From Parcubacteria group bacterium Gr01-1014_8 (GTDB lineage: Bacteria; Patescibacteriota; Minisyncoccia; Phycocordibacterales; UBA2100), in assembly GCA_007376385.1 (NCBI GenBank), contig VMGC01000002.1, positions 32,001-96,000 of the forward strand: DNA of 64,000 bases. The letters are read 5' to 3'. Position 1 is the stretch's first letter, and each line of letters starts with the position of its first letter. This document shows positions 23,855 to 62,658 of the stretch, piece by piece. The notes under the pieces are model-generated. The model was not told where the DNA came from, ran no database searches, and was given only the letters and a program-made list of their open reading frames with translations. Both the position numbers and the translations under genes were made by a program.

Positions 23855-24075
23855 GAAATGCGAAAGCGCAGGTTTCGCATTTCCGAGCGACACAGACAGC
23901 AAAGGTTTAAAACCCCGCGGCTTGCCTGCCTGTGCGATGCACGCAGACAGGCCGCGGAATTTGGGAAACGAGCAGCGCTCGTTTTCCAGAGTCCAGGGCT
24001 TGCCCTGGGGGTTGAAACCTTTCATCCGACCACGCCGCGGCAGCCGGCAGGCGTCTGCCGCAAAGGCACATTTTC
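23855..24075 (+). repeat. Structured intergenic element, copy B of the hairpin/CCGAGC-box family (GAAATGCGAAA..TTTCGCATTTC hairpin, CCGAGCGACACAGACAGCAAAGGTTTAAAACCCCGCGGCTTGCC core, internal palindromes, then GGGTTGAAACCTTTCAT)
   Basis: 50-nt core differs from copy C at 31361-31412 by one mismatch; lies between pyrF and pyrE. Confidence 0.6.
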
Positions 24076-25912: not shown

Positions 25913-26020
25913 ATACCCCGTGAGATATGTATAAAAAAGGCATCTTAACTAGCTGATTATTCATTTGAATTTATAGATTGTGATGAGAAATTTGGAGTGT
26001 ACCTATCTCATGGGGTATAC
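25913..26020 (+). promoter_or_regulatory. Inverted box pair ATACCCCGTGAGATA ... TATCTCATGGGGTATAC around a 76-nt spacer, about 25 nt upstream of the 26045 start
   Basis: Family member; arms pair G:U as RNA. Confidence 0.55.
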
Positions 26021-26510: not shown

Positions 26511-26626
26511 TACTCGGCGGGGGTATGTGTTTTTCCGGGCACCGATCTTTCTTGGAAGAAAGATCCTCGAGTCCTCGGTCGTCACCTGCGGGGTCCCTGC
26601 GAAACACATACCCCCGTGCTCGCCGG
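26511..26626 (+). repeat. Conserved structured element downstream of a gene, copy 2 of 3 (outer stem GGGGGTATGTGTTT/AAACACATACCCCC, CCGGGCAC, inner hairpin GATCTTTCTT/AAGAAAGATC, CTGCGGGGTCCC)
   Basis: See the copies at 2067-2149 and 57700-57783; sits between convergent genes. Confidence 0.7.
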
Positions 26627-28988: not shown

Positions 28989-29096
28989 GTTGACCCCGTG
29001 AGATAAACATGGTGACGTTCGAGTCGAACATGTGGTTTTGTTGTGGCTCTCAAGCACCGCCTAACAATAAGGAATGGGTTATCTCACGGGGTTGAC
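28989..29096 (+). promoter_or_regulatory. Inverted box pair GTTGACCCCGTGAGATAA ... TTATCTCACGGGGTTGAC (18-nt perfect inverted repeat, 72-nt spacer) in the ftsA-ftsZ intergenic region
   Basis: Family member with extended arms. Confidence 0.55.
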
Positions 29097-32623: not shown

Positions 32624-32759
32624 ATTAGATTTTGTTAGCGAATAAAATGAGCTTAGAAAATCTTATACCCTGTTAAATACGACCTTTCCAAGGTCGTCCA
32701 GCCTCCGGCGGGATTTAACAGGGTTTAGAAAAATATAGTCGCTCATATTCATTCGCTCG

Positions 32760-33416: not shown

Positions 33417-33699
33417 AAAGTGACTTCAGGCGGGTACATCGCGCGCATTCTACTACTTAACAGTAATTGACACCAAGCGGGAGGGGTGTTGTATGTGGAA
33501 AACAATATATTTTTTCTCGCACGGATATTTTTTTGCTAAAAAAGTTCGCTCGGTATTCCTCTCGCTGAACCCGAGCGCATATTTCCGGCGATATGTGCCC
33601 TTATGCTTCAACGCGCAACTCCTCACTTCATTCGGAGACCCAGGCTTGCGCGTTTCCAGAGATTCAGCGAGAGGAATACCCGCTTGAATGAAAAATATT

Positions 33700-33761
33700 T
33701 ATTGGCGAGCGTTGCGAGTGACGCGAAAATGTACTCATTTTCATGTCCGAGCCGGGGAGCC
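33700..33761 (+). repeat. Hairpin/CCGAGC-box family copy D (GCGAGCGTTGCGAG, GAAAATG-N4-CATTTTC, ATGTCCGAGCCGGGGAGCC)
   Basis: Family member between lepB and pth. Confidence 0.5.
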
Positions 33762-33940
33762 AAAACAGGGTCGAGTGCCCTTTATCTGCTATGATGTTTC
33801 GTTATGACCCGGTAGTAGAATTTCGGCTTGTCTTGTCTAAATCGAATAACACAATTAATCTATATATTCAAAGATGACCCTATGACGTTTTTACGACCAC
33901 GACCTGCGCGTCGCGCCAGCCGAAATTCCACTAACCGGGT

Positions 33941-34534
33941 ATGACATGGGTGATCGTTGGCCTCGGAAATCCAGGAGAGGAGTATGAGCATACTCGCCAC
34001 AACACCGGCAGAATGGCTGTCCAGCACTTTGTGCGCTCAAAAAAGATAGGTGAGTGGAAAGAAGATGCAAAAGCGAAGTCGCTTGTCGCGCGAGGCATGG
34101 TTGAACGCTCGCTCGCCGCGTTCGTGTTGCCTGAAACGTTCATGAACAAGTCGGGAGGCGCGCTCACGAAATTCGTAAAGAGCATGAAAGCAGCAGAAAA
34201 TCTCGTTGTGGTCTACGATGAGCTTGATCTGCCTCTTGGAGCGATGAAAATTTCGTATGACCGTGGTAGCGGTGGACACAAAGGCATTGAATCCATCATG
34301 CGTGCAGTCAAAACGAAAAAATTCTGGCGCATTCGCATCGGTGTTTCGCAGTCTACGGCTGGAGGAGAGATAAAAAAACCTCACGGCGGCAAAGCGGTGA
34401 ACGATTTTATACTTGATATATTCAAACCGCACGAACACGCGGTTCTAAAGACCGTATTCAAGCGCGTCGAGAACGCACTCGAAAGTATCATCGTCGACGG
34501 ACCTGAGAGAGCGATGAATCAGTTCAATTCATAA
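33941..34534 (+). CDS. pth: Peptidyl-tRNA hydrolase
   Basis: MTWVIVGLGNPGEEYEHTRHNTG canonical N-terminus. Confidence 0.9.
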   Translation: MTWVIVGLGNPGEEYEHTRHNTGRMAVQHFVRSKKIGEWKEDAKAKSLVARGMVERSLAAFVLPETFMNKSGGALTKFVKSMKAAENLVVVYDELDLPLGAMKISYDRGSGGHKGIESIMRAVKTKKFWRIRIGVSQSTAGGEIKKPHGGKAVNDFILDIFKPHEHAVLKTVFKRVENALESIIVDGPERAMNQFNS

Positions 34535-42743: not shown

Positions 42744-44042
42744 ATGACCAAACTTTCATTTTTTCAGATAGTCGTACTCTCATCCTTCGGTGCTCTCGCG
42801 ATCGCGGGCGTAATGATATTTGCGTTCGTGGTCGGCGGCTCCGGAGGCGAGGGCATAGGAGAAGTGAAAATTTGGGGCACGCTGGACGCTGGCGCATTTG
42901 CAACGATACTCCGTCAGCTTGCGGAAGAGGACACTCGCATGAAAGCTGTAACGTATACCCAGAAAGATCAATCAACCTTCGATCGGGATGTGACCAATGC
43001 GCTCGCGTCCGGTGCGGGGCCTGACCTGTTCGTTCTCCGCAGTGATTTCGCAGAAAAGGAGGCAGCGAAGGTGTCGGCAATACCGTATGCGCTATTTTCG
43101 GAAGAACAATTTCAAAATACGTTCATCGAAGCGGCGAACGTATACATGGGTCCGGAAGGAGTGCGCGCCGTTCCGCTTGTTGTGGACCCGCTCGTACTCT
43201 ACTGGAATCGCGACATGCTGGCCTCATCGGGCTTTGCGAAACCGCCCGTGTTTTGGGACGAGTTGTTCGACATGGCGACAAAAATGACCAAAAAAGACGA
43301 TACGAATTCCATCATAAAGAGTACCATCGCGCTCGGTGAACATCAGAACGTGGATCATGCGAAAGAGATACTCTCGCTTCTCATCATGCAAGCTCAAGGC
43401 CGCATCACGCAAAGAGATGGTACGGGGAAATTGCAGACGGCGCTTGTGGCGCGCGCAGGAGATGTACAGCAGCCGACAGAATCGGCGCTCCGGTACTACA
43501 CTGAATTTGCGAACCCTATCAAAGCGCACTACACATGGAATCGCGCACTTCGAGAGAGCCGTTCAGCGTTCGCATCGGGAGATCTCGCACTTTATATAGG
43601 CCTCGCAAGCGAGGAGCCGTTGGTACGCCGCATCAATCCGAATTTGAACTTCGCTATTGCGCCAGTGCCGCAGATACGGGGCGGTGCTCGGAGCTTGAAT
43701 GTGGGACACGTATACGCATTTGCCGTACCAAAAGCGGCCAAGAATCTGCAAGGCGCTCTCACGGTTGCCTATACTCTTGCATCAATGGATACGTCAAAAC
43801 TATTCTCTAAGGCTCTTGGCATGCCTTCTGCAAGGAGAGATGTTCTTGCGGAGCCTGCGACGGGCAATGATGATCTTTTCAACAAGCAAGCCATCCTTGC
43901 GAGAGCGTGGGTAGACCCGGACCCGGAAAAAACTGATGTTATATTTAGAGACATGATACAGAGTGTCACCAGCGGCTCTGCGCGTCTCGGCGAAGCGATA
44001 CAGAGGGCGGATAAGACGATGAGCGACCTTCTCAGCATATGA
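42744..44042 (+). CDS. Membrane-anchored extracellular solute-binding protein (ABC substrate-binding, family 1-like)
   Basis: N-terminal TM helix then a periplasmic binding fold of about 400 aa. Confidence 0.55.
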   Translation: MTKLSFFQIVVLSSFGALAIAGVMIFAFVVGGSGGEGIGEVKIWGTLDAGAFATILRQLAEEDTRMKAVTYTQKDQSTFDRDVTNALASGAGPDLFVLRSDFAEKEAAKVSAIPYALFSEEQFQNTFIEAANVYMGPEGVRAVPLVVDPLVLYWNRDMLASSGFAKPPVFWDELFDMATKMTKKDDTNSIIKSTIALGEHQNVDHAKEILSLLIMQAQGRITQRDGTGKLQTALVARAGDVQQPTESALRYYTEFANPIKAHYTWNRALRESRSAFASGDLALYIGLASEEPLVRRINPNLNFAIAPVPQIRGGARSLNVGHVYAFAVPKAAKNLQGALTVAYTLASMDTSKLFSKALGMPSARRDVLAEPATGNDDLFNKQAILARAWVDPDPEKTDVIFRDMIQSVTSGSARLGEAIQRADKTMSDLLSI

Positions 44043-44144
44043 CCCCATGAGAGAAATACTTTCGATATACCTATGAACATGATTGAACAGATCTACATGT
44101 GGGAGACAACAAAACATTCAAGCAGTCTCTCTCACGGGGTATGA
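44043..44144 (+). promoter_or_regulatory. Variant box pair TATGACCCCATGAGAGAAAT ... TCTCTCACGGGGTATG. The 5-prime box overlaps the TGA stop of 42744..44042 and the 3-prime box abuts the ATG of 44141..44488
   Basis: Same arrangement as between infB and rbfA (50709-50814). Confidence 0.55.
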
Positions 44145-50380: not shown

Positions 50381-50710
50381 CTACTTCCGGGTCAGTTCAT
50401 CTATTCGCTGTCGATTTTCTTCCCCAATATCAAGCACAAAATCGACGGTGGGAACGTTCATTAAAACCGTCTTTGCTTTCAAAAAATCGTGAAAGTCGGT
50501 TCGCACGCGCTTAAGGAACGCGATGGCATCTCCTTGCTGCTCCTTCGGAAGCACCGAAACGAATATCGACACATTTTTTAGGTTGGGGGAAATGTCTGCA
50601 CGGGTCACAGTGATGAGAGATTTGCGGTTTGATTCTCGAGCGATGAAGTCAGCTGCGTGGTGCGCCATCGCTTCGGCAACTTTAATTTGTCGGCGGGACG
50701 GAGCGTTCAT
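50381..50710 (-). CDS. rbfA: Ribosome-binding factor A
   Basis: N-terminal SRRQIKVAEAM aligns to the RbfA consensus (RxxRVAxxM); lies downstream of infB. Confidence 0.8.
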   Translation of the reverse strand: MNAPSRRQIKVAEAMAHHAADFIARESNRKSLITVTRADISPNLKNVSIFVSVLPKEQQGDAIAFLKRVRTDFHDFLKAKTVLMNVPTVDFVLDIGEENRQRIDELTRK

Positions 50711-50814
50711 ACCCCGTGAGAGAAACTATCTAAAGCTACTAAGCTTGGTCGCATGCTGTTGGAAAGGATTGATTTCATATATATTTTAAAGAATATTCTC
50801 TCATGGGGTCATAC
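50709..50814 (-). promoter_or_regulatory. Variant box pair bridging the infB stop and the rbfA start (on the minus strand: TGACCCCATGAGAGAATAT ... TTTCTCTCACGGGGT-ATG)
   Basis: One arm overlaps the infB TGA, the other abuts the rbfA ATG; 14-bp potential RNA stem. Confidence 0.55.
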
Positions 50815-52317
50815 TGTTTTTGTTACGAAACATTCAAGCATGTCGCCCTGTGCGACCTCAAATTGCGAAGTTATCTCTGCGCCGAATTCGCCGCCTGTTT
50901 CGACTCTATCCACATTTTGCTTATGCGATTGCAAGTTTGTTATTTTTCCCAAGCCTACTTCTACTTTCCGCCTCGTTACTCGAACGGAGCACCCGCGCTC
51001 GATCTTCCCTTCGCTTACGGAGCCGCCAATGACGTGGATATTTTTTCGTGAGCCAAATTGTTTCAACACTTTTGCTCGGCCTAGCTGCTCTTCGATGTGC
51101 CTCTTAGGTGCTGCTTCCTTCAATAATTCCTCAAGTCGCTCCGTCAACTTATAGATGATGTCGAACGTCTCGATGTGAATACCGTGCTGTCTCGCTCGCT
51201 CGCGGGCCGTTGCGTCTACGGTTACGTTGAATCCGACAACGGTTGCGGGAGTTGCCGAAGACGCGATAGCCGATTTCACATCGTTCTCGGAAATGTTGCC
51301 GATTTCCGACTGCACGATGCGCACCGCCGCGTGCTCGTCTTTGATGCGCGATACTTCGTGAACAATGGCTTCAAGCGAACCCGATGCGTCCGCCCGAACG
51401 ATAATGGGCAAGATAAATTGTCCCTCTGGCGTTTCTCCTGAAAGGGAATCACTCTCGCGTTTTTGATGCGAGAACTCTTTTGACCGTGCTTCTTCCGCGT
51501 CGCGCTTGTTCTTAAATGTCTGAAATCCGATCCCGACAGTAGGCAATTCGTCGAAACCAACGAGAAGAACAGGGGTTGAGAAGCTGGCCTCTCGGATGCT
51601 TTTTCCCTTATGGTCTTCCATAATTCGTACCGGCGCGATTGCCCGCCCTGCTTGAATTGCCATGCCGCTTTTTAACGTTCCATCCGTTATCACCAGCGTT
51701 GCTGCAATGCCGCGTTTTTGGTCTCGGTGCGCTTCTATCACATATCCCGTCGCGGGTTTCGAGGCGTCTCCCTTATATTCCTGCAATTCAGCAACAAGGA
51801 GGACGAGGTCTAGAAGTTCTGTTACGCCGGTGCCTGTCTTTGCGGAGATAGCCGTCCACGGCACATCGCCGCCGAGCTTTTCAAGGAAGACGCCTCTTTC
51901 GAGCAAACTTCCTTGCGTTCGTGCTATGTCGGCATTCGGCTTGTCTATTTTATTTATCGCGACAACGAGAGGAATGGCGCTCTCCCGAATACTCGCAAGA
52001 GCTTCGACCGTTTGGGCCTTGACGCCATCATCTGCTGCAACTACAAGGATCGCGATATCAGCTATGTTCGCACCGCGTGAACGTATCGCTTGAAATGCAG
52101 CGTGTCCTGGTGTGTCGATGAACGTGATGCGCTTTTTAACGCCGTCTTTTTCGTGCTCGACTTCGTATGCCGCGACGTGCTGCGTGATGCCGCCTGCTTC
52201 TCCTGCGACGACGTTGGATTTGCGGATGAAATCTAAGAGCGTCGATTTACCGTGATCGACGTGTCCCATTACAACAACGATAGGGGGCCTCTCCGTGTTG
52301 TTGGTTGTTGGTGTCAT
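50809..52317 (-). CDS. infB: Translation initiation factor IF-2 (compact form, 502 aa)
   Basis: G-domain GHVDHGKSTLLD, DTPGH, NKID; C-terminal beta-barrel domains. Confidence 0.9.
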   Translation of the reverse strand: MTPTTNNTERPPIVVVMGHVDHGKSTLLDFIRKSNVVAGEAGGITQHVAAYEVEHEKDGVKKRITFIDTPGHAAFQAIRSRGANIADIAILVVAADDGVKAQTVEALASIRESAIPLVVAINKIDKPNADIARTQGSLLERGVFLEKLGGDVPWTAISAKTGTGVTELLDLVLLVAELQEYKGDASKPATGYVIEAHRDQKRGIAATLVITDGTLKSGMAIQAGRAIAPVRIMEDHKGKSIREASFSTPVLLVGFDELPTVGIGFQTFKNKRDAEEARSKEFSHQKRESDSLSGETPEGQFILPIIVRADASGSLEAIVHEVSRIKDEHAAVRIVQSEIGNISENDVKSAIASSATPATVVGFNVTVDATARERARQHGIHIETFDIIYKLTERLEELLKEAAPKRHIEEQLGRAKVLKQFGSRKNIHVIGGSVSEGKIERGCSVRVTRRKVEVGLGKITNLQSHKQNVDRVETGGEFGAEITSQFEVAQGDMLECFVTKTV

Positions 52318-52351
52318 AGGGAGTTCGTGATGCCATACGAATTGGGCGAGT

Positions 52352-52455
52352 ATACCCCATGAGATAAAAAACTCATAGCCCAGTGATATAGGGTATTTGT
52401 CAAATCAAAATTCGTCGCGCAAAAAGTGTCAAGCGATCTATCTCACGGGGTATAC
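52352..52455 (+). promoter_or_regulatory. Inverted box pair ATACCCCATGAGATA ... TATCTCACGGGGTATAC (72-nt spacer) between divergent infB and the cysteine desulfurase gene
   Basis: Family member. Confidence 0.55.
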
Positions 52456-52533
52456 GCCCAAAAGTCAAAATTTGAAAGTCAGCGGCGCGTGCAGTCACTT
52501 CCGAAATTAAGTATTTAAGCCTAGAATCACGGC

Positions 52534-53715
52534 ATGCTTGGTTTTTTTAAAAAGAAGCGGATTTACTTTGACTACGCAAGCGCGACTCCGGAGAGAGGGG
52601 AATCAGCGCGAGCAGTCGAAAAGGCACGTGCAACTTTTGGGAATCCCGGGGCAATACATGCTGAAGGGGTAGAAGCTAAGGCAGTCTTGGAGAATGCGAG
52701 AGAGCGTATCGCGCTCCAACTTGCATGCAAGGCGCGGGAGATCATTTTTGTCTCCGGCGGTACGGAAGCGAACAACCTCGCTATCCTGGGTTTTGCCCGC
52801 AAAATCGAAATGAAAGGCGATGAACTGATGCGTACACACTGGGTAACAAGTTCTATTGAACATCCGTCGGTTTTGGAATGTTTTGCAGATATAGAACGCA
52901 GGGGCGCTGTTGTGACTCATGTCGAACCGGACAGCCGGGGAATCATCCGACCCGAAGCCCTGAAGCATGCGCTTCGGCCAGAGACTGTTTTCGTTTCTAT
53001 CCAAAGCGCGAATCATGAGATAGGAACTATCCAGCCGATCCGCGACATCAGTGCTGTATTGAAAAAACACGAAGAAAAGTTCAAGGGCATTGTCATCTTC
53101 CACTCTGACATGGGGCAGACGCCTCTGTATCGCTCGCCGCGGGTGCATGGTTTCGGCGTCGACATCGCCTCCTTTGATTCGGGAAAATTGTACGGACCGC
53201 GAGGCGTAGGGTGCGTGTATTTGAATAATCGAACAGAACTCGCGCAAGTAATATTGGGCGGTGGACAAGAACGAGGACTCCGCGCAGGCACGGAAAATGT
53301 TGCGCTCGCGGCAGGTTTTGCGGAAGCCCTCGAGTGCATCTCGCGAGAAAGAGAGTCTGAATCAGCGCGAATTCATATTCTCCGCGATACACTTTGGTCG
53401 CACATAGAAAAAGGTATCGAGGGAGTCGAGTTGAACGGAAGCCTGAAGCACTCGCTGCCGCATATACTGAATATTTCTGTGCCGAATATTTCAAGCGAAT
53501 ACGTCACGCTCGTTTTGGATAATGCCGGCATCGCAATTTCCACAAAAAGCGCGTGCAAAGAAGGCGAAGAACGCCGTTCGCATGTCGTTGAAGCTCTCGG
53601 GGGAGAAAAGTGGAGAGCGGCGAACACACTGCGTTTCTCTTTGGGGCTCGCGACGACGGAAAAAGATGTCGCAGCCGCCGCGCGTGAACTTACCGCAGCC
53701 GTTGCCCGCCACTGA
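52534..53715 (+). CDS. Cysteine desulfurase (class V aminotransferase, NifS/IscS/SufS-like)
   Basis: FDYASATP, SGGTEANN, SANHEIGTIQPIRDIS, HSDMGQTP. Confidence 0.8.
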   Translation: MLGFFKKKRIYFDYASATPERGESARAVEKARATFGNPGAIHAEGVEAKAVLENARERIALQLACKAREIIFVSGGTEANNLAILGFARKIEMKGDELMRTHWVTSSIEHPSVLECFADIERRGAVVTHVEPDSRGIIRPEALKHALRPETVFVSIQSANHEIGTIQPIRDISAVLKKHEEKFKGIVIFHSDMGQTPLYRSPRVHGFGVDIASFDSGKLYGPRGVGCVYLNNRTELAQVILGGGQERGLRAGTENVALAAGFAEALECISRERESESARIHILRDTLWSHIEKGIEGVELNGSLKHSLPHILNISVPNISSEYVTLVLDNAGIAISTKSACKEGEERRSHVVEALGGEKWRAANTLRFSLGLATTEKDVAAAARELTAAVARH

Positions 53716-53860: not shown

Positions 53861-54069
53861 CTACCCCGTGAGATAAAGTCATTCGGTGTATGTGGAGGTG
53901 ATGTTGCTTGGTGACTAATATCGAACGCGGCTCATAACTTTTCGCCATATCTCATGGGGTCTACCCCGTGAGATAACTGTTCGTCTTTTGTTTCGAATTG
54001 TAGTTCATGTATCCATAGTACAATGTCGGTAATGAGACATCTATACACCTCCTATCTCATGGGGTATAT
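53861..54069 (+). promoter_or_regulatory. Two tandem inverted box pairs: CTACCCCGTGAGATAA ... ATATCTCATGGGGT|CTACCCCGTGAGATAAC ... TATCTCATGGGGTATAT, ending 13 nt before the 54083 start
   Basis: The central 29-nt near-perfect palindrome is formed by abutting boxes. Confidence 0.55.
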
Positions 54070-62499: not shown

Positions 62500-62521
62500 G
62501 CCCTGCACGTCTTCGTATTGA

Positions 62522-62608
62522 CCCCATTAGAGAAGGATCATTTCCTTCCAGCTTGTTCTGCGTATTCGCTCTTCAAAAATTGATCGAAATAGGACCAAAG
62601 CATTCTCT
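62522..62608 (+). promoter_or_regulatory. Inverted box pair variant ATTGACCCCATTAGAGAA ... CTCTAACGGGGTTGAC, about 50 nt upstream of rpmG
   Basis: Diverged family member. Confidence 0.45.
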
Positions 62609-62658
62609 AACGGGGTTGACCTAGAGCCGCTATTTGGCTATAGTGCGCCCGAATCGAT

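Follow-up and report, generated by a model that had tools for sequence, protein, structure and literature searches.

Ssn proteins are single-domain GIY-YIG enzymes that act as hairpin-specific nucleases on single-stranded DNA (ssDNA) and cut beside the hairpin, on one strand only (PMC11893778). The ssn genes are flanked by cognate repeats, which occur in hundreds of copies per genome (PMC11893778), and the authors of the study pointed out that the order repeat-gene-repeat resembles an insertion sequence, with mobility put forward as a hypothesis only (Chenal et al. 2025, Nat Commun 16:2388, PMC11893778). In the REPIN/RAYT system, REP doublets form hairpins and the Y1 transposase is encoded by a single-copy gene (Bertels and Rainey 2011, PMC3116915). 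The subject here is an inverted repeat between infB and rbfA of Parcubacteria group bacterium Gr01-1014_8 (assembly GCA_007376385.1), together with the family of paired boxes to which it belongs. It lies in a stretch of 64,000 nucleotides of contig VMGC01000002.1 (positions 32,001 to 96,000 of the forward strand), which is called the window; positions are those of the window unless a locus is named. The feature is most probably a non-autonomous miniature element of ~97-99 bp with terminal inverted repeats, inserted into an ancestral ATGA overlap of the two genes.

Ssn/SRM is the closest known system to the family of boxes and GIY-YIG genes described here. The two have in common a small GIY-YIG protein (~86-94 residues), a gene flanked by an inverted repeat, many intergenic copies of an oriented repeat and an occurrence in many phyla; as in Ssn systems, the repeats flank the nuclease gene on both sides and are multiplied in the genome. 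By contrast, the box set (ACCCCRTGAGAKAA) lies outside the SRM consensus, the half-sites are ~70 nt apart (or ~255 nt with the gene) and the right half-site is in the reading frame. Ssn repeats are compact hairpins of 20-50 nt, whereas the boxes are terminal repeats with the gene in the loop, and insertion is here, unlike for Ssn, backed by direct repeats and empty sites. The SRM consensus, HGTCWYN(0-2)YYVSBRHN(0-5)WNVSBRGN(0-2)RNCYNB, had no match in the window or in three loci with GIY-YIG genes (L024, L115 and L184); the positive control, L123, had three matches, and the compact box hairpin of L061 had none. In the literature searched, neither the boxes nor any GIY-YIG element that has both terminal repeats and target duplications was found described, and only the Ssn study was relevant. 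The family is of the GIY-YIG-nuclease/hairpin-repeat kind and is apparently an undescribed variant of it.

On the minus strand the junction reads ..GTAACAAAAACAGTA TGA CCCCATGAGAGAA TATTC..interior..GATAGT TTCTCTCACGGGGT ATG AACGCT.., with the following features.
50809..52317, minus strand: infB, 502 amino acids (aa), with Pfam domains GTP_EFTU, IF-2 and EF-G_D2.
50809..50813, minus strand: upstream direct repeat TATGA (T-ATG-A), which includes the infB stop TGA (50811 to 50809).
50796..50809, minus strand: coding-strand 5' arm (box), ACCCCATGAGAGAA, which begins with the A that ends the infB TGA.
50725..50795, no strand assigned: interior of the element, 71 nt, unlike the interiors of other copies and without an Rfam match.
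50711..50724, minus strand: 3' arm (box) on the coding strand, TTCTCTCACGGGGT, with the rbfA ATG directly after it.
50707..50711, minus strand: downstream direct repeat TATGA, which includes the rbfA start ATG (50710 to 50708).
50381..50710, minus strand: rbfA, 109 aa, with the Pfam domain RBFA.

The original prediction, made from the letters of the window, was of an RNA stem of about 14 bp with one A:C mismatch and a loop of roughly 75 nt, which holds the infB stop and the rbfA start at its base and might couple the translation of the two genes. The arms (50809 to 50796 and 50724 to 50711) are indeed complementary over 14 positions, with 13 Watson-Crick pairs and an A·C mismatch at position 6, and the placing of stop and start at the foot of the stem was confirmed on the minus strand; the loop is large as predicted, at a measured 71 nt rather than 75. 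In-silico folding, which had been proposed as a check, returned the stem in both the minimum free energy (MFE) and the centroid structure of the coding-strand RNA, at -24.1 kcal/mol against -17.8 +/- 3.2 kcal/mol for shuffled sequences (z = -1.96; equalled by 3 of 200 shuffles). Folding is more favourable for the antisense strand (-33.4 kcal/mol, z = -2.95), where the mismatch turns into G·U and for that reason no longer weakens the stem. A search of Rfam with positions 50600-50920 gave no match at E <= 1.

The inverted repeat is itself flanked by a 5-nt direct repeat (TATGA...TATGA) that holds the stop and the start, a feature overlooked in the original prediction. A metagenome scan with the infB protein gave 80 loci, none closer than ~70% amino-acid identity, and the junction was read in 13 relatives, namely the 12 closest at 65-69% infB identity and L117 at 55%. 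In all 13 syntenic relatives infB and rbfA overlap or abut, with a gap of -4 to +6 nt (1-6 nt apart where they do not overlap), and no boxes were found within ~7 kb in these 13, nor in any of the 80 metagenome infB loci. The C-terminus of infB (..ECFVTKTV*) and the N-terminus of rbfA (MNAPSRRQ..) stand at the same positions as in the relatives. The junction of L107, ..ACCGTA TGA ACGAATCACGCC, is an ATGA overlap; it reads CCGTATGAACGAATCAC and GTATGAACG, the predicted empty site being CCGTATGAACG. Removal of the element and one TATGA from the window sequence gives CAGTATGAACGCTCC / ..ACAGTATGAACGCTCC, which has the same structure as L107. Taken together, the empty sites and direct repeats identify the element as an insertion, and the juxtaposition of stop and start follows automatically from duplication of a target that holds both codons. 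The original prediction had itself held absence from close relatives with conserved synteny to speak against a coupling arrangement; the boxes are absent from 13 of 13 syntenic relatives (55-69% infB identity, none of them close), and by that measure a conserved coupling device at infB-rbfA is not supported. The same TATGA-flanked variant is also present in L093 and L102, which were rejected as orthologous copies because they are not infB-rbfA junctions.

Other elements are present at this junction in other genomes. L156 has a different miniature element of ~130 nt between its infB and rbfA (TATGA-CCCCCACACTAATGATGCC...GGCATCATTGGTGTAGGGG-TATGA), and its nearest relatives (75-76% infB identity) have empty sites. 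L115 has an element of ~300 bp (TATG-CCCCTGCACACGAAATGACC...GGTCATTTCGTGTGAGGGG-TATG) with a GIY-YIG open reading frame (ORF) of 89 residues, while the infB-rbfA spacer of L123 (4522-4583; infB 50% identical) contains two SRM hairpins of the canonical Ssn type (TGTCATCCCCGCGAAGGCGGGGATCCAG and a partner in inverted orientation). These sequences show that the infB-rbfA junction has been struck repeatedly and independently by elements associated with GIY-YIG genes (L115, L156, L123).

Searches of the window with the box ACCCCGTGAGAGAA at up to two mismatches gave 15 matches, against 0.25 expected and a maximum of two in 100 shuffles. A wider search revealed nine box pairs, all intergenic and with 68-74 nt between the arms. 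The nine copies are as follows.
9987..10083, plus strand: GAGATAA type, TATA flanks; the ATG of an ABC-transporter gene is 11 nt past the box (GGGGTATACTTGTCCAATG).
25915..26016, minus strand: GAGATAA type, box pair.
28993..29092, no strand assigned: GAGATAA type, arms perfectly complementary; T-TG-A direct repeat.
44042..44140, plus strand: GAGAGAA type, TATGA direct repeat; the left TGA is the stop of a solute-binding-protein gene and the right ATG the start of a 115-codon ORF.
50711..50809, minus strand: the infB-rbfA copy, GAGAGAA type, TATGA direct repeat.
52354..52451, plus strand: GAGATAA type, upstream of infB in the spacer between divergent genes; its stem runs into the flanks (-44.7 kcal/mol, z = -6.7).
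53863..54065, minus strand: two tandem GAGATAA-type copies (53863-53960 and 53963-54065) with the joint GGGGT-CT-ACCCC.
62521..62616, plus strand: copy e9, whose variant boxes ACCCCATTAGAGAA / TTCTCTAACGGGGT are compensatory; T-TG-A direct repeat.

The arms of the nine pairs are near-invariant and the interiors, of ~70 nt in the family and not conserved, cannot be aligned in either orientation; a blastn-short search with the nine interiors against the window and all fetched loci gave no match. Across the whole window, Rfam at gathering thresholds found only tRNAs. Several other identities were rejected. The interior is not tRNA-like, as ARAGORN found no tRNA in any element even though the loop is ~71 nt; a small ORF from the box ATG is not conserved (ATG AGA TAA in the common variant, nine codons at infB-rbfA, ATT in e9); and an intrinsic terminator was neither predicted at the element nor indicated by a T-tract after the stem. 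Inspection of the arms found no GTTRRRY/RYYYAAC cores of an integron attC site, and there is no cassette array, the flanking genes being housekeeping genes. Tn3 inverted repeats start with GGGG when read from outside, and the element ends begin with CCCC, which sets aside Tn3-type ends. With four copies in each orientation and a monotonic GC skew, a replication-strand bias was also rejected.

A scan for ACCCCRTGAGAKAR-N60-82-YTMTCTCAYGGGGT, with one genome per species, returned at least 103 loci, all from metagenome-assembled genomes. Most are labelled Patescibacteria, or Candidate Phyla Radiation (CPR), with Kaiserbacteria, Paceibacterota, Nomurabacteria and 'Saccharibacteria' among them; other labels are Verrucomicrobiota, Planctomycetota, KSB1, Ignavibacteria, Calditrichia and further phyla. 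These labels are those of the record titles, and mis-binned contigs are possible. The interior length peaks sharply at 70 nt, with 68-72 nt in 79 of 109 copies, a peak that is partly set by the 60-82 nt which the search pattern allows. The distances between facing boxes are quantised (L001-L103 and the window), with a main peak at 70 nt, minor ones at ~33 and ~15 nt, and 254-255 nt in the copies with a nuclease gene.

Eleven of the 14 arm positions are complementary in at least 127 of 131 copies, the exceptions being positions 6, 12 and 14. Position 12 covaries without exception (T:A in 116, G:C in 15, mixed in none), position 6 is A·C (G·T on the other strand) in 93 copies, G:C in 36 and A:T in two, and so forms a Watson-Crick pair in 38 of 131, and position 14 shows no covariation and pairs inconsistently. 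The asymmetric position 6 and the inconsistently paired position 14 give the element a polarity and an effective stem of 13 bp. A conserved interior motif or an extension of the stem was rejected, since no interior position is kept and pairing stops at the box in 79 of 93 copies. The interiors of the nine copies in the window are unrelated, whereas those at different loci of one genome can be 90-100% identical elsewhere (CAYPGH01, with L003/L011/L025; L022a/b; L012/L014), which is evidence of real amplification in those genomes.

The 93 copies with the A·C/G·T position, mostly from metagenome-assembled genomes labelled CPR, can be oriented by it. Their left flank is T-NN- before ACCCC and their right flank -NN-A after GGGGT, the two NN being identical, as in TATA, TGTA, TCTA, TAGA, TACA, TCAA and TTGA, and sometimes with three N, as in TATGA; tandem copies meet as GGGGT-NN-ACCCC. 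Direct repeats of the form T-N2/3-A are present in 68 of the 93, against 19.8 by shuffling (maximum 31 in 2000), and when TAT flanks are left out, TATA being self-complementary, in 33 of 51 against 4.3 expected.

That the infB-rbfA copy is a variant of a recurring box pair was borne out, and the variant has its own flanks. Copies with GAGAGAA have TGA on the left and ATG, GTG or TTG on the right in 11 of 14 cases, compared with 6 of 79 for GAGATAA (Fisher p = 6e-8). Their repeats (T-ATG-A, T-GA-A and T-TG-A) mark insertions into ATGA, GTGA and TTGA overlaps. The GAGATAA variant lies mostly in TATA, and an ORF starts 5-20 nt past the end of the box in 25 of 79 copies, with peaks at 11 and 13 nt. 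Among the 56 ORFs of at least 150 aa in the window, a Shine-Dalgarno-like motif precedes 10.7% (11.7% at random positions), while TAnnnT lies within 18 nt upstream of the start in 35.7%, compared with 9.7%. This finding suggests that mRNAs of this organism are leaderless or have very short leaders, and it fits an element that inserts into -10 boxes and regenerates them. The association of GAGAGAA with overlaps could possibly reflect a heritable choice of target, through a match of the NN core between junction and target, or selection that keeps both genes expressed.

A tblastn search with the L115 protein revealed GIY-YIG genes adjoining box pairs in six box-containing loci. In L024 and L047 (KSB1) the boxes themselves bracket the gene, as TCACCCCGTGAGATAAggatcgccaaATG ... 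AGA AAT TAT CTC ACG GGG TAA, and, as the right box reads AAT TAT CTC ACG GGG TAA, it forms the last five codons and the stop of the nuclease (..NYLTG*); three miniature copies in tandem stand before the gene there. Box-bracketed GIY-YIG ORFs are also present, in independent contexts, in L184-L191, L192 and L195. The GIY-YIG elements are ~290 bp long and encode only a single-domain nuclease of 85-87 residues, with a Pfam GIY-YIG match at E = 5e-17 (86 aa) and, in NCBIfam, only a sub-threshold match to a group I intron endonuclease model; among solved structures, 1YWL and 1ZG2, both of UPF0213 proteins, come closest.

The database search gave 1543 homologue clusters. The best 120 of these are mostly 85-87 residues long, and 87 of the 120 end exactly in YLTG. 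In a second subfamily the ending ..NRLKRFLSLTG* is found in 76 of the best 120. One gene of this FLSLTG subfamily, from Kaiserbacteria, has the terminal repeats AGCCCGTTAGAGAT...ATCTCTAACGGGCT, which the boxes of the window copy e9 (ACCCCATTAGAGAA) resemble, and the GAGAGAA right arm, TCT CTC ACG GGG, can encode SLTG.

Some GIY-YIG elements lie in other surroundings. In L184-L191 (gene at 1501-1761) and L192 (5967-6264) the box-bracketed element is inside a Y1/RAYT-like transposase frame, and the motif at the point of insertion, marked here by a slash, is the same in two unrelated lineages (..WQRGF / (N)HDHIIR.. and ..GKGI / DHIIRND..); the element of L184-L191 adjoins WYL and Cas3/Cas6 genes. 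In L029 (340-700) the repeat around a Campbellbacteria GIY-YIG gene is an unrelated one, a perfect inverted repeat of 21 nt (ATCCAGCACTTAACTTTGCTC / GAGCAAAGTTAAGTGCTGGAT), which also overlaps the last codons of the gene, so that the layout of a gene inside its own hairpin would be a general one.

The explanation we prefer for infB-rbfA is therefore that of an inserted miniature element. The target T-ATG-A would have been duplicated, with the left repeat keeping the infB TGA and the right repeat the rbfA ATG, and the position of stop and start at the foot of the inverted repeat would be a by-product of the insertion. The boxes of 13-14 nt would be terminal inverted repeats, those of GIY-YIG nuclease elements of ~290 bp. 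An Ssn-like GIY-YIG protein may recognise them as a DNA hairpin and drive mobility, the strand-asymmetric A·C/G·T position may mark the active strand, and the T-NN-A repeat could result from a staggered cut of 2-3 nt or from a crossover. The one-strand cleavage beside a hairpin published for Ssn (PMC11893778) would accord with the asymmetric position 6, an indirect hint of such cleavage, and with a core of 2-3 nt. This mechanism is a proposal, set beside the observed repeat family, direct repeats, empty sites and bracketing of GIY-YIG genes. After insertion the element would be co-transcribed with infB and rbfA and, less firmly, as the genome makes no use of Shine-Dalgarno sequences, translation of rbfA would depend on translation of infB to open the stem.

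More tentatively, and as something we regard as possible rather than probable, the family may form a new class of prokaryotic element. Its autonomous form, of ~290 bp, would encode only an 86-residue Ssn-like nuclease whose last codons are its own right repeat, and would move through a hairpin or ssDNA intermediate into T-NN-A targets, the sub-lineages inheriting their target (TATA in -10 boxes or NTGA in start/stop overlaps). In CPR genomes lacking Shine-Dalgarno sequences, coupled genes would tolerate miniature derivatives of ~98 bp between them, since coupling would be kept by the hairpin together with the duplicated stop and start.

Several observations weigh against an inserted, mobile element. 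The flanks in non-CPR genomes are inverted (TTYACCCC..GGGGTRAA) and not direct repeats, and with the closest relatives at 55-69% infB identity the insertion is not datable and no polymorphism within a species was observed. There is no GIY-YIG gene within the 64-kb window and, to our knowledge, GIY-YIG enzymes hydrolyse DNA and have no known transposase activity, so strand joining would require host functions. The 86-residue GIY-YIG gene of Kaiserbacteria lies between pheS and pheT in 10 of 10 places read (L196-L205 and L037:6774-7045), where the left repeat takes in part of the TAG stop of pheS or all of it, by overlap, and the ATG of pheT is 2 nt past the GIY-YIG stop; with its fixed site, this gene looks domesticated rather than actively mobile. 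Finally, 18 of 18 boxes in the window are intact, no interior resembles another and neither decayed nor solo boxes occur, which is unlike a selfish element in neutral decay and hints at selection on the boxes in place. The intact boxes suggest either such selection or policing by a resident nuclease.

The last two of these points also speak for an alternative, a nuclease and repeat system domesticated by the host, like Ssn/NTS or RAYT/REPIN, in which box pairs would be kept as sites for a single-copy resident GIY-YIG nuclease in ssDNA, for example in recombination, transformation or replication; the infB-rbfA copy would then be such a site and not a selfish insertion. The tight interior length of ~70 nt, the strand-asymmetric mismatch and the Ssn precedent (PMC11893778) are also in its favour. 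We consider it unlikely as an alternative, given that an origin by insertion would still be required by the empty sites and direct repeats, that copies with identical interiors point to recent amplification in other genomes and that the published SRM consensus is not matched by the boxes.

It is distinctly improbable that a hairpin in the RNA arose, or was kept, in order to tie rbfA translation to the termination of infB or to control that translation by its structure. In favour of it, both the MFE and the centroid fold of the mRNA strand contain the stem, no Shine-Dalgarno sequence precedes rbfA, in line with a genome in which none is used, and the GAGAGAA copies at ATGA, GTGA and TTGA overlaps (11 of 14) show that insertions between coupled genes have been tolerated repeatedly. 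A promoter of its own for rbfA, named in the original prediction as evidence against coupling, was not convincingly found: the sole promoter-like match in the element, ATGACC-18-TAAAAT, occurs at chance rate and no -10 hexamer is placed for a leaderless rbfA mRNA, so that an internal rbfA promoter was rejected as a candidate and this point stays on the side of coupling. Against it, no relative in which synteny is conserved has the arrangement, the same element also occurs between convergent genes, in promoter regions and in either orientation with respect to transcription, the stem of the mRNA strand bears the A·C mismatch while folding is better on the antisense strand, duplication of TATGA accounts for the stop/start geometry, and no Rfam family matches.

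Termination and reinitiation across the base of the helix are also unlikely as originally stated. The footprint of a ribosome on a stop codon covers the adjoining mRNA, and one bound to the UGA would occlude the 5' arm, so that the helix cannot hold stop and start together at termination. As the arm starts one base after the UGA, a terminating ribosome must have melted the stem, and coupling would act by unmasking the rbfA start. Translation of infB may unmask it in this way, and some coupling may still be needed, which would at most be secondary to the insertion. The regulatory interpretation is otherwise largely replaced by that of a mobile element.

About equally improbable is a miniature element mobilised by a conventional transposase, either of the DDE kind (IS630/IS5 type, with a TA-rich target) or Y1/RAYT, with the GIY-YIG gene as passenger or cargo; the size of ~100 bp, the inverted repeats with short TA-rich direct repeats, the REPIN-like inverted doublet with a ~70-nt spacer and the elements of L184-L191 and L192-L195 inside Y1/RAYT-like ORFs (..GF/(N/H)DHIIR..) favour it, but the only coding sequences found between boxes are GIY-YIG genes (two subfamilies, several phyla) with the right box in their frame, the window has no RAYT motif, the boxes are, unlike REP, not individually palindromic, and Y1 transposition leaves no target duplication.

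REPIN/RAYT is nevertheless the closest analogy in population structure, and conventional miniature inverted-repeat transposable elements are closest in anatomy. The family shares with REPINs numerous intergenic doublets of ~100 bp with a less conserved spacer of ~70 nt, and the single-copy, flanked nuclease gene (pheS-GIY-pheT) is, like RAYT, apparently vertically inherited. Unlike REPIN/RAYT, the enzyme is GIY-YIG and not HUH/Y1, the boxes are non-palindromic and have no GTAG head, the direct repeats resemble target sites and the interiors in the window are unrelated. There is no RAYT motif in the window, the boxes are not self-complementary and the bracketed genes are GIY-YIG. Terminal inverted repeats, a target-site duplication and an empty site in relatives, as expected of miniature inverted-repeat transposable elements, were all found, the relatives being distant.

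Correia elements of Neisseria, which the family resembles, are ~100-150 bp long, with terminal inverted repeats and a TA target duplication; they lie adjacent to genes, are co-transcribed as a hairpin, and their ends can recreate -10 boxes. Their interiors, however, are shared between copies and their ends are unrelated to the boxes, and the putative autonomous partner here encodes GIY-YIG. The family resembles IS200/IS605 in its hairpin-forming ends, strand asymmetry and sequence-specific targets, the choice of which seems heritable (TATA or NTGA); it differs in that IS200/IS605 has a HUH transposase, subterminal hairpins instead of terminal inverted repeats, and no flanking duplication.

Around the junction, infB is short (502 aa), without the long N-terminal region, and nusA is not upstream of it. 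A class-V aminotransferase gene is divergent from infB (50809-53715), with the box pair at 52354-52451 between them.

The window also contains inverted repeats of other kinds. At 33801-33945 another miniature inverted-repeat element, TATGA-CCCGGTAGTAGAATTTCGGCT...(89 nt)...AGCCGAAATTCCACTAACCGGG-TATGA, provides through its right TATGA the ATG of the gene at 33941. Nearby, within the non-coding stretch 33417-33940, is a perfect 18-nt inverted repeat (33552-33680; GGTATTCCTCTCGCTGAA / TTCAGCGAGAGGAATACC) with 93 nt between the arms. A short element with CCC/GGG termini, TATA-CCCTGTTAAAT...(34 nt)...ATTTAACAGGG-TTTA, lies between two minus-strand genes at 32664-32727. Inverted repeats of 22-26 nt with arms 55-70 nt apart are found at 26518-26616 and 23901-24022 (CGGGGGTATGTGTTT.../...AAACACATACCCCCG; AAAGGTTTAAAACCCCGCGG...).

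The apparent regulatory RNA at infB-rbfA is thus read as the footprint of a mobile element, which calls for caution in taking stems that join a stop and a start codon as evolved coupling devices. The comparative evidence (direct repeats, empty sites and repeated strikes at one junction) indicates that pairs of the Ssn/SRM type, described in 2025, include truly insertional elements, with miniature derivatives in CPR bacteria and in phyla that include Planctomycetota, Verrucomicrobiota, KSB1 and Ignavibacteria. Should the 86-residue nuclease prove sufficient, no other autonomous mobile element known in bacteria would be nearly as small. With its insertions at ATGA, GTGA and TTGA overlaps, one sub-family provides a natural experiment on the way in which coupling survives an insertion of 100 nt where Shine-Dalgarno sequences are lacking.

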